From NCBI GenBank assembly GCA_963799255.1, contig CAWCWO010000015.1, forward strand, positions 1,453 through 65,452: a stretch of DNA of 64,000 bases, given 5' to 3'. Position 1 is the first letter of the stretch. Each line of letters opens with the position of its first letter. The notes below the pieces were generated by a model. It had not been told where the DNA came from, did not search any database, and saw only the letters and a list, made by a program, of their open reading frames with translations. This DNA comes from an uncultured Pseudomonadota bacterium (GTDB lineage: Bacteria > Myxococcota_A > Polyangia > Nannocystales > Nannocystaceae). Positions 6 to 4,997 of the stretch are shown here, piece by piece. The position numbers and the translations under genes were made by a program.

Positions 6-3000
6 ATGGCCGGCCCTTCGACGACCAATGCAGACCGCTCGGCGGCCGCAACTATCCGCGGGTTCGTTAGTCAGGCGTACTGGACCCTAGACCGGTGGCT
101 CGACCTGGGTGACGGAGAACACCTGGTGTGCGAGGGCTACGAGGACGTCGACAAAATCTTGTTCGACGACGCGGGCCGTTTCACGTCTGTGCGAGAGCAA
201 ATGAAGGACCTCTCCGCGAACATCAGCGTCCGAACGCCGGACGTTCACGAGACGATCTTCAACTTCCTCCTCGGGTTCCACGACGCACACGCGAAAGGAG
301 AGACGGCTCGCTTCGTGTTCACGACGTCGGCCGCGCTCGCGCAGCAACGCATCGGTCCAAGCAGATCCCCCCAGAACCCGCGGGCCGACCTTCCCATCGA
401 TGTGCTAGCCACATGGTCCAAGCTAGACCCGACGGGTTCTGACTCAGAGTCCCTGGCAAAGCTGGAGCAATCCGTAAGGGAGCTCGTCAGCTACTACGGG
501 AAGCCTCCGCCCAACGCCGATACGCACGTGCCCCACAGGCACAGCAACGAAACGCTCCAGGCCACGCTCGCCTACATCACCGAGCAGGGGCTTTGGCCGA
601 CATTCTTCGCCGCTGTGGCCTGGAAACCCGAACAGCTGGCCGGTGCAGACCTGGTCCAACACCTTCAGAACAAACTGGCATCAGACAGGCGAGGAACTGC
701 TCTCCCCGCTCCCTTGCTCATACAACGCCTGCTAGCGGTGGTCCTACACACGGCGTCCCGCAAGAACGCTGCCGACCGCGTCCTTCGTCCCGCATCGCTG
801 GAAGAAATCACAACTACCACCGCAGACGAGCTGCGCGCGTGGGCGACAGAGAACCGGGGCGAGCTCGCGGCGGAATGGCTGACCGAGCTGCAAGAGGACA
901 TGGCCGACCTCAAGCGGAACGTGGCGGCGCTCACTGACGCGACGTCGCCCCGCGCAAAACTCCTGCGCCACTCGGAGAGAGTCGCCGCGTCTCTTGAAGA
1001 CGACGGGCACTTTTCTTTCCAAGGGACACCAATCTCCCTGGAACGACTCGTTGTGGACCGGATGCATTCGATGGCTCTCGCCGGCTCGATGTTGGTGGTC
1101 GGTGATGCCGGTGTTGGAAAGTCCGGCGCGCTGGGAGCACTCGTTCGCCGGTTCCGCGACGAAGGCAGGACGGTAGTCTGCCTCTCTGCGAACGACCTGC
1201 TTCCCAATGGGCTTGGTGCGGAGCTTCCTGAGATTCTCTCCGGCCTCAGCGCGGCGACGCCTGGAGGCTTCCTCGTGGTCGACGCGCTGGATACAGCCCG
1301 AGGACAAACGGGGGCGGCAGAAGTCCGTCACACGATCAGGCTCGTTCGCGAGACATGCGCCGACTGGAGCGTGGTCGCGTCGGTACGCACGTACGATCTT
1401 TCGTCGCGGTCATCACTCGCTGCGGCCTTCGCCGGCTCTCCCGACGCTGACTTTCAGAACCCGCGGTTCCCGCATACCCGTCACGTCAGTGTCCCCGAGT
1501 TGAACGACGACGAACTTGAGCGGCTGTCCTCGTCGAACACGGACCTCGCAGCCCTACTCGAAGGTGCCGCAAAGGGCGTCCACGACTTGCTCCGGAACCT
1601 ATTCAACCTCTCCATCGCCGGTGCTTTGCTCGACGGCGGACTTGGGGTTGCAGAGCTGCGCTCGGTTCACTCTCAGATAGGCCTGTTGGGCCTGTACTGG
1701 GAGCGACGAATCGCGACCCCTTCCGCAGAGAAGTACGCTCGCAAAGAGCTCTTGCGGAACGTGGTCGGCGCGATGCTAGACCAGGCGAAACTGCGAATCG
1801 CCCTGCGGGACCTACCATTGGCGAACTTGTCCAAGGCAGTGGACGACCTGATGAGCGCGGGCGTCCTAATCCACCCCCGGCATTCGACGGACTCAGCAAG
1901 AGACGATTCTTTCCTGGAGTTCTCTCACGACATCTTGTTCGACTACGCTGGCGCCCAAGTATGGTTAGGGCCAGGGCCTGAGCGTCTTGCAAAGCAACTG
2001 GAAGACCGGCCCGACCTCTCGTTCATCGCCAGACCAAGTCTGACGATGTACTTCCAACGCATCTGGGCATCCGACAGCACCCGCGCCCTGTTCTGGGAAC
2101 ACGCCATCGTTCTTGCCGCATCGGAGTGCCGTGACATTGCGAAGGTCTTACCATCACGTGTTGCGTCGCAGGTCGCTCGGAGAGCCGAGGATTTCGAACC
2201 CCTGCTCGCCAAGGCCGCTGGAGACAGCCCCCAACAAGAACAGGCGGCAGCGGTGCTTCACCACATCATCGGCGCGCTCGGAGCGTCCGAACAGGTGGAC
2301 ATTGTGGGACCAAGTGGAGGGCCATGGTGTTCGCTGTGCAAGGTATCCAGTTCAAGCAACCACTGGAACATGATGGAAGCCACCCGTCGCCTGCTCCACA
2401 TTTTCGCGGCGTCGACGTCGTCGCCGACCGCGGATCAACTGGCGCATGCAGGCCATGCCGCACGAGCGTACCTAGCGGCACTTCAGGCTAAGGGGACGCG
2501 CAGTGCTGATGCACTAGCACAGGCAGTTGGCTTCGTGACGAGAACATTCGCGTCGAACATCTCGGATTCAAAGGACATTCTACGCTCGGCAACAACGCCG
2601 AAATCTTTAGCAGAGTTCGGCTTTGCCAGTATCCGCAGTCTCGCCAATGAGATGGGCCATATTATCGCCACGTCTCCCGAGTTTGCGAGCGAAATCTACA
2701 CTTCTGCATTTGCGCACCGAGAGACATCAAAAGAACAGACATCGATCCGCGGTGGCGTCATGGGGCTCACATCCCATCGGCGCCAGGATTACGAAAGTGG
2801 CCTCCACATTCTCGCACGCCAACCCTACAAACTCCTCTGCACCACGGACATTCTGCACGCAACTCGGTGTCTCGCTCGCGTCCTCCATCATCTTGATCAG
2901 GAACGAGACTATACGGGCGGGCATCCGCGGAGAAACAGGTCATTCCAATTCATGGGAGGAACCGCTTATCTCTCTGAAAGCCTCACCCCGCACCTCTTCA

Positions 3001-4997: not shown

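Follow-up and report, generated by a model that had tools for sequence, protein, structure and literature searches.

A predicted Avs-type STAND sensor-effector with a Cap4-like nuclease head in a variable hotspot of a Nannocystaceae genome

Results

The locus and its first gene

We analysed a stretch of 64,000 nt (the window) from an uncultured bacterium of the family Nannocystaceae (assembly GCA_963799255.1), corresponding to positions 1453-65452 of contig CAWCWO010000015.1 (C15) in a genome of 10.07 Mb, 36 contigs and 66.6% GC that is 92% complete. At the left end of the window lies gene 1 (positions 6-4997, plus strand), an uninterrupted open reading frame (ORF) of 1663 codons that begins with an ATG 5 nt into the window and stops at 4997. 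An alternative in-frame ATG stands 48 nt upstream at C15:1410, beyond the window; it is the start chosen in the public gene call, whose protein is 16 residues longer (1679 aa). Full-length homologues of the product at 26-33% identity, together with a 785-bit match in PADLOC described below, show that gene 1 is a genuine gene and not a chance ORF. Two further plus-strand genes follow, gene 2 (5237-6970) and gene 3 (6855-10205).

A first-pass annotation made from the letters of the DNA had proposed that gene 1 unites an effector, a nucleoside triphosphatase (NTPase) and a long repeat region in a single polypeptide, as is typical of the tripartite Avs proteins. This layout is borne out by structural models of the head and the NTPase and by a profile of the sensor. 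The motifs on which the proposal had been built are each present in one copy: IRGFVSQ (residues 17-23), CEGYEDVD (42-49), EQMKD (64-68), GDAGVGKSG (366-374) and LVVDALD (423-429). Searches of the whole protein against Pfam and NCBIfam gave sub-threshold matches only.

The N-terminal head is a predicted Cap4-like nuclease

Residues 1-292 (positions 6-881, plus strand) are predicted to form a Cap4/DUF4297-like PD-(D/E)xK nuclease head, as judged from an AlphaFold2 (AF2) model, Foldseek searches and a family profile. Alignments of 32 and 24 relatives show G19, Q23, W31, E43, D47 and K67 to be invariant and E46 and Q65 to be close to invariant; the catalytic codons are those of E43 (132-134), D47 (144-146) and K67 (204-206). 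The AF2 model, calculated from 24 sequences with a predicted local distance difference test (pLDDT) value of 87.2, has the alpha-beta-beta-beta-alpha-beta core of PD-(D/E)xK nucleases (helix 13-32, strands 38-42, 47-53 and 59-67, helix 78-96, strand 100-107), and this topology occurs together with the conserved acidic residues and the lysine of the QxK motif.

When the head model was compared with the PDB using Foldseek, the top 20 matches (E<=1e-3) were exclusively Cap4-type defence nucleases; LmuA (2e-6), HerA-DUF4297, Cap4, HamA and the Avs3 head are among the fold matches. The head-family profile matches three solved DUF4297 proteins (8ziq, 5.7e-5; 9c1m, 1.2e-4; 8xav, 4.3e-4), with each alignment beginning at chain residue 2-3 and pairing identical motifs, and PADLOC reports a weak LmuA match (7e-6). 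The assignment of the N-terminus to this nuclease type, for which a missing match to PD-(D/E)xK or Cap4 models had been set beforehand as the refuting outcome, has therefore withstood its test by fold and by profile. The suggested Pfam family PF14130 fits in part: the kinship in fold and profile is real, but the head misses the PF14130 threshold (E 0.28) and is hence Cap4-like rather than a member of that family.

In 1.84 billion representatives, searched exhaustively with phmmer (E<=0.001), the head domain was found in 501 proteins; a word-indexed homologue search with the head found 5 proteins. The domain is N-terminal in 148 of 151 proteins examined and is fused to C-termini of widely differing length. 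Among 64 members that were scanned, 21 carry nSTAND_NTPase5 and 17 AAA_16, and Cap4_nuclease matches only two of them at E<=0.001. Its fold and active-site pattern mark the modelled head as a Cap4-like nuclease, but of a distinct family for which Pfam has no model.

A STAND NTPase switch related to antiviral Avs proteins

The head is joined to the NTPase by a helical linker (residues 293-334, positions 882-1007, plus strand), for which AF2 predicts helices at 301-333. Residues 335-656 are a STAND NTPase made up of a nucleotide-binding domain (NBD), a helical domain and a winged-helix domain (WHD), all encoded on the plus strand. The NBD (residues 335-500, positions 1008-1505) is delimited by invariant columns, the alignment with SeAvs7 and the model; it holds Walker A at residues 366-374 (K372 at 1119-1121), Walker B at 423-429 (D426 and D429) and the invariant sensor-1 arginine R461 (1386-1388) at the end of the sensor-1 strand. 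The helical domain (residues 501-572, positions 1506-1721), placed by alignment and model, has conserved PFNL and YWxxR motifs, and the WHD (residues 573-656, positions 1722-1973) carries the invariant FSHxxLFDY motif with H641 at 1926-1928.

The NTPase alignment and profile comprise 58 sequences over residues 300-760. G369, G371 and K372 of Walker A, D426 and D429 of Walker B (hhhhDxLD) as well as R432, R461, F639, H641, F645, D646 and Y647 are invariant in this alignment. Both the GxxxxGK[ST] and the hhhhD pattern of the STAND superfamily are thus present, and the order of NBD, helical domain and WHD, with sensor-1 arginine and WHD histidine, is seen in the alignment and in the AF2 model of the NTPase module (pLDDT 87.5). 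The profile matches SeAvs7 (PDB 9N00) at 4.9e-13 in two stretches, the NBD and the winged-helix region, and H641 pairs with the conserved SeAvs7 winged-helix histidine that contacts ADP. In a Foldseek search of the module Avs4 came out on top (1.2e-9), three orders of magnitude before ORC/Cdc6, MalT and classical AAA+ proteins. The Walker A/B NTPase noted earlier therefore groups with antiviral STANDs and not with housekeeping ATPases.

A second large ORF in this genome (C35:1058625-1063970) matches the PDC-M54A-type NTPase profile (3.4e-11) without head or sensor and, going by this similarity, is probably another STAND.

A long C-terminal sensor with HEAT-like units

The remainder of the protein (residues 657-1663, positions 1974-4994, plus strand) is the C-terminal sensor, defined by the PDC-M54A match and by family conservation, which extends to the final residue (GWP...L.Y.L...FR). 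Searched against the PDB, a sensor profile of 43 sequences finds HEAT proteins only (PP2A-A, 9.4e-6; INTS4, 1.7e-5), and the units at about residues 1290-1420 (positions 3873-4265, plus strand) are on this profile similarity HEAT-like. The Pfam HEAT_2 model scores 20.6 bits on residues 1290-1365, below its cut-off of 27.7. With a full-length profile of eight sequences, matches in the PDB were limited to FtsY P-loops and PP2A HEAT repeats, and SeAvs7 was missed. This region had been described as more than 1000 aa of helical repeats, some of them clearly of HEAT type; helices are confirmed at 657-760, where the AF2 model is helical, whereas HEAT similarity is confined to about 1290-1420 and stays sub-threshold in Pfam.

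Gene 1 belongs to a deep clade of the PDC-M54A family without the PDC-M54B partner

Residues 294-1663 match the PADLOC model PDC-M54A (PDLC04700) at 2.9e-236 and 785 bits over model positions 256-1657 only. The product is thus recognised as protein A of PDC-M54 with the first ~255 model positions unmatched, and the family, which the first-pass annotation could not name, can be called PDC-M54A over this part of the protein. PDC-M54, consisting of A and B, is a multi-gene computational 'phage defence candidate' of PADLOC (Payne et al., bioRxiv 10.1101/2024.01.29.577857). A literature search gave no match for PDC-M54 or WP_140197987. In the STAND survey by Lee et al. (2026, bioRxiv 10.64898/2026.01.04.697583) the Salmonella protein WP_140197987.1, a PDC-M54A-type NTPase, is seed 418, and the PDC-M54A family has hence already been counted among candidate defence STANDs.

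One metagenome scan yielded 405 core relatives, and the counts of heads, B genes and neighbours given here refer to the 80 best of these. About 70 of the 80 bear a different, 'canonical' head. This head has a similar G..FQ / E / DD / QxK pattern and finds HamA as its top PDB match (E 0.023); a profile-profile comparison between it and the gene 1 head is weak (E 0.0012, probability 19%). The head type of gene 1 occurs in the metagenome set at two loci only (L094 and L103), and besides in Sorangium So ce131, in one Myxococcales metagenome-assembled genome and in 12 representative proteins. All 15 proteins bearing it form a single clade (support 100/99), two proteins headed by a CHAT protease form a separate one (100/100) and 57 proteins with the canonical head a third (97/94). 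Since the clades are sorted by head, the head type follows the NTPase phylogeny and does not reflect a recent swap. The gene 1 product itself sits on a long branch, with an identity to any other row of <=39%.

A PDC-M54B gene lies directly downstream of A in 47 of the 80 metagenome relatives, and a hidden Markov model (HMM) of the B protein recovers B in these 47 loci. Genes 2 and 3 have no M54B match, a homology search of the genome gave none, and this HMM, built from 32 B proteins, found no PDC-M54B among the 55,307 ORFs of the genome at its 92% completeness. The B gene is equally absent from all three loci with the same head and readable downstream DNA (the window, L008 from Sorangium and L009 from the Myxococcales), and many canonical A genes, too, are without a B neighbour. 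The gene 1 product is therefore a deep-branching member of PDC-M54A, in a clade with a DUF4297-like head and without the PDC-M54B partner.

Gene 1 is cargo of a variable hotspot

Gene 1 is missing from all seven congeners, and no full-length match was found in 72 other genomes of the same family. The single match within the family (L007; G008:C252:503-1246) covers the head domain only (34% identity); its frame has 429 aa and the contig is 2.7 kb long. The flanks of the locus (C15:1-1006 and window 12722-14603) are 93-94% identical to and collinear with those of one congener (G004, contig C7; L132), and the shared flanks enclose 13.2 kb here versus an unrelated 6.0 kb there. The cargo holding gene 1 thus covers positions 1-12721 of the window, with its left boundary 445 nt before the window and its right boundary at 12721/12722. 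In the congener the cargo opens with a truncated tyrosine-integrase ORF (L132 2220-2780), and there, too, the upstream ORF has the FG-GAP gene (at 12905 here) as its neighbour. With none of seven congeners carrying it and a variable hotspot as its site, gene 1 is not a syntenic core gene, and the refuting outcome set beforehand on this point did not arise.

Upstream partners had been described as out of view. Inspection of the 1452 nt upstream of the window revealed, ahead of the alternative ATG, a gap of ~470 nt and beyond it an unrelated ORF of 307 aa; gene 1 is hence without an upstream partner. This flank ORF (L001 17-940) is multi-copy, with nine matches in the genome, several of them with internal stops, and tandem copies in the congeners G003 and G006. 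At the right end of the cargo, on the minus strand (10265-12415), stand ORFs of 216 and 450 aa that have no Pfam or PADLOC match.

Elsewhere, homologues neighbour known defence genes and recombinases or integrases. The Sorangium homologue adjoins a serine recombinase, a TIR-STAND and a SIR2-pAgo fusion, the Myxococcales homologue (L009) an integrase, and others adjoin integrases, PDC-S11, a Type ISP restriction-modification enzyme or conjugation genes. Relatives of gene 1 were not found in IMG/VR viral contigs. The two proteins beside the homologue in Sorangium sp. So ce131 (L002 15496-24951) are a TIR-STAND of 1434 aa and a SIR2-APAZ/pAgo fusion of 1055 aa, and the NTPase of this TIR-STAND matches PDC-M54A models at ~1e-15.

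Genes 2 and 3 form a separate module

Both downstream genes lie outside the system. Gene 2 encodes an FMO-like flavoprotein that opens with a FAD/NAD(P) Rossmann region; it matches the PADLOC LmuA model PDLC03858 (2.9e-54) over the N-terminal half of that model, which we take to be of the Lamassu-FMO type. Gene 3 matches the VPA1262 N-terminal domain above threshold; recent work has shown that the VPA1262 family provides defence as a single-gene system, Juno. The overlapping pair recurs in another genome, G311 (L046 6767-8671 and 8658-11789), where it is framed by SIR2-HerA and an AAA_21 ATPase and no relative of gene 1 is present. The 80 metagenome loci that hold a gene 1 relative contained no relative of gene 2 or 3. 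Because the pair is found without gene 1 in G311, we regard it as a separate module in a hotspot that it has in common with gene 1. A link between gene 1 and the two genes, which the first-pass annotation had raised, is not upheld by this distribution.

Genes 1 and 2 are 239 nt apart, and a scan of 4800-5400 revealed neither promoter-like nor terminator-like consensus sites. The intergenic region contains, at 5067-5136, two direct repeats of 23 nt, CAGTTCGGCAGA(TG/AC)TGACCACGG, and a third GTGACCACGG core, with a spacing of 23-26 nt. This array follows a -35-like hexamer, TTGACG, ~100 nt before gene 2, and it may serve the gene 2/3 pair as an operator or promoter.

Discussion

In this study we describe gene 1 as a putative self-contained sensor-effector of the Avs type, a reading to which we assign a probability of roughly 0.8. 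Established are the identities of its domains, the conservation of catalytic and nucleotide-binding residues, the family membership of its core, its accessory distribution in a hotspot and the absence of a partner. The trigger, the oligomerisation, the cleavage of DNA and the defence itself are proposed by analogy with SeAvs3, SeAvs4 and SeAvs7. In such a mechanism the helical sensor of ~1,000 residues at the C-terminus would bind a phage protein, and this binding would free the autoinhibited switch of NBD, helical domain and WHD from its ADP-locked state. ATP binding would then drive oligomerisation, and the N-terminal Cap4-like heads, now clustered, would act as a DNA endonuclease on phage and host DNA alike, destroying both and causing abortive infection. 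The residues needed for each of these steps are intact and conserved.

Several observations weigh against this reading. The isolated head scores 11.8 bits with PF14130 Cap4_nuclease (E 0.28), below the cut-off of 26.2 bits, and in comparisons at the sequence level the sensor profile of 43 sequences matched neither Avs7/Dsr1 nor any other characterised Avs sensor. PDC systems are 145 computational 'guilt-by-embedding' candidates in PADLOC. The GC content at third codon positions of gene 1 is 0.688, at the 18th percentile among long ORFs and no outlier, and composition therefore backs horizontal acquisition only weakly. Finally, the absent PDC-M54B partner could mean an incomplete system.

This last point leads to the view of gene 1 as an orphan, left over from a two-gene PDC-M54 system after the loss of B and now inactive or impaired. 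Such a loss would agree with the position of B directly downstream in 47 of the 80 best relatives and with the failure to find a B gene in this genome. We consider it unlikely, given that the gene is intact with all its catalytic and nucleotide-binding residues conserved, that the 15 proteins with the same head are one clade in which B is present at none of the three readable loci, that many canonical A genes are solitary as well, and that effector, switch and sensor are already united in the A protein. It is rather improbable, too, that gene 1 and the two genes downstream act as one three-gene system. The three share a strand and lie inside one hotspot cargo, and the gap after gene 1 is only 239 nt long and without a terminator-like site; yet this gap bears its own repeat array beside the -35-like hexamer, the same-head relatives in Sorangium (L002/L008) and in the Myxococcales (L009) have no gene 2 or 3 downstream, and the metagenome loci have neither. 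The pair beside SIR2-HerA in G311 does without gene 1, and Juno defends as a single gene.

Much the least credible to us is a STAND/HEAT scaffold with a role other than defence, for instance a regulator or a housekeeping ATPase. STAND clades do include non-immune members, and FtsY is matched at the P-loop with ~3e-7. This match, however, spans ~95 residues only, and its Walker B is not aligned to FtsY's own motif, for which reason we regard the FtsY matches, on their alignments, as non-specific. SeAvs7 and Avs4 match better and across more domains. The presence of a nuclease head whose active site is conserved, the patchy distribution typical of an accessory gene and the location in islands likewise speak against a non-defence role.

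It might be possible that the whole clade with the DUF4297-like head is independent of a partner, that head type and B partner are linked alternatives, and that the HEAT-like sensor reads a conserved phage (here myxophage) protein which no named Avs family is known to sense. We put this forward as a tentative idea only. Gene 1 adds a deep-branching, partner-less lineage to a large candidate family of bacterial NLR-like receptors, and its head represents a widespread family without a Pfam model (501 representative clusters) that is mostly fused to STAND NTPases. Set side by side, the solo clade and the canonical A and B pairs offer a simple route to the contribution of the B partner. Architecture and logic are what specialists would expect, and gene 1 is a divergent but fairly ordinary member of a catalogued candidate family.

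Compared with PDC-M54, the gene 1 product has the NTPase motifs, the sensor and the C-terminal motif in common, and differs in its head family, its separate clade and the lack of PDC-M54B. SeAvs7 (9N00; 1523 versus 1663 aa) resembles it in overall plan, with a Cap4-type head, a STAND NTPase and a long helical sensor, and in a homologous NTPase and winged-helix region (4.9e-13) that includes the WHD histidine and the hhhhDxLD Walker B; the bilobed sensor of the Avs7/Dsr1 type, in contrast, was not recognised in the gene 1 product by sequence comparison. Likeness to Avs3 and Avs4 (PDB 8DGC and 8DGF) lies in the fold, as the Avs3 head superimposes on the gene 1 head model with a TM score of 0.54 and Avs4 is the top fold match of the NTPase module (1.2e-9). 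Their sensors are unlike, and at the sequence level membership is not supported, the PADLOC Avs2 model matching at 1.6e-4 over the P-loop only. With Cap4 of CBASS, LmuA of Lamassu and the DUF4297 protein of HerA-DUF4297, gene 1 has in common the nuclease fold and the G..(F/Y)Q ... E.xED ... QxK motifs, even though its head falls below the PF14130 threshold of the Cap4 family. Whereas those nucleases are driven by SAVED, SMC or HerA partners, the gene 1 head is fused to a STAND NTPase.

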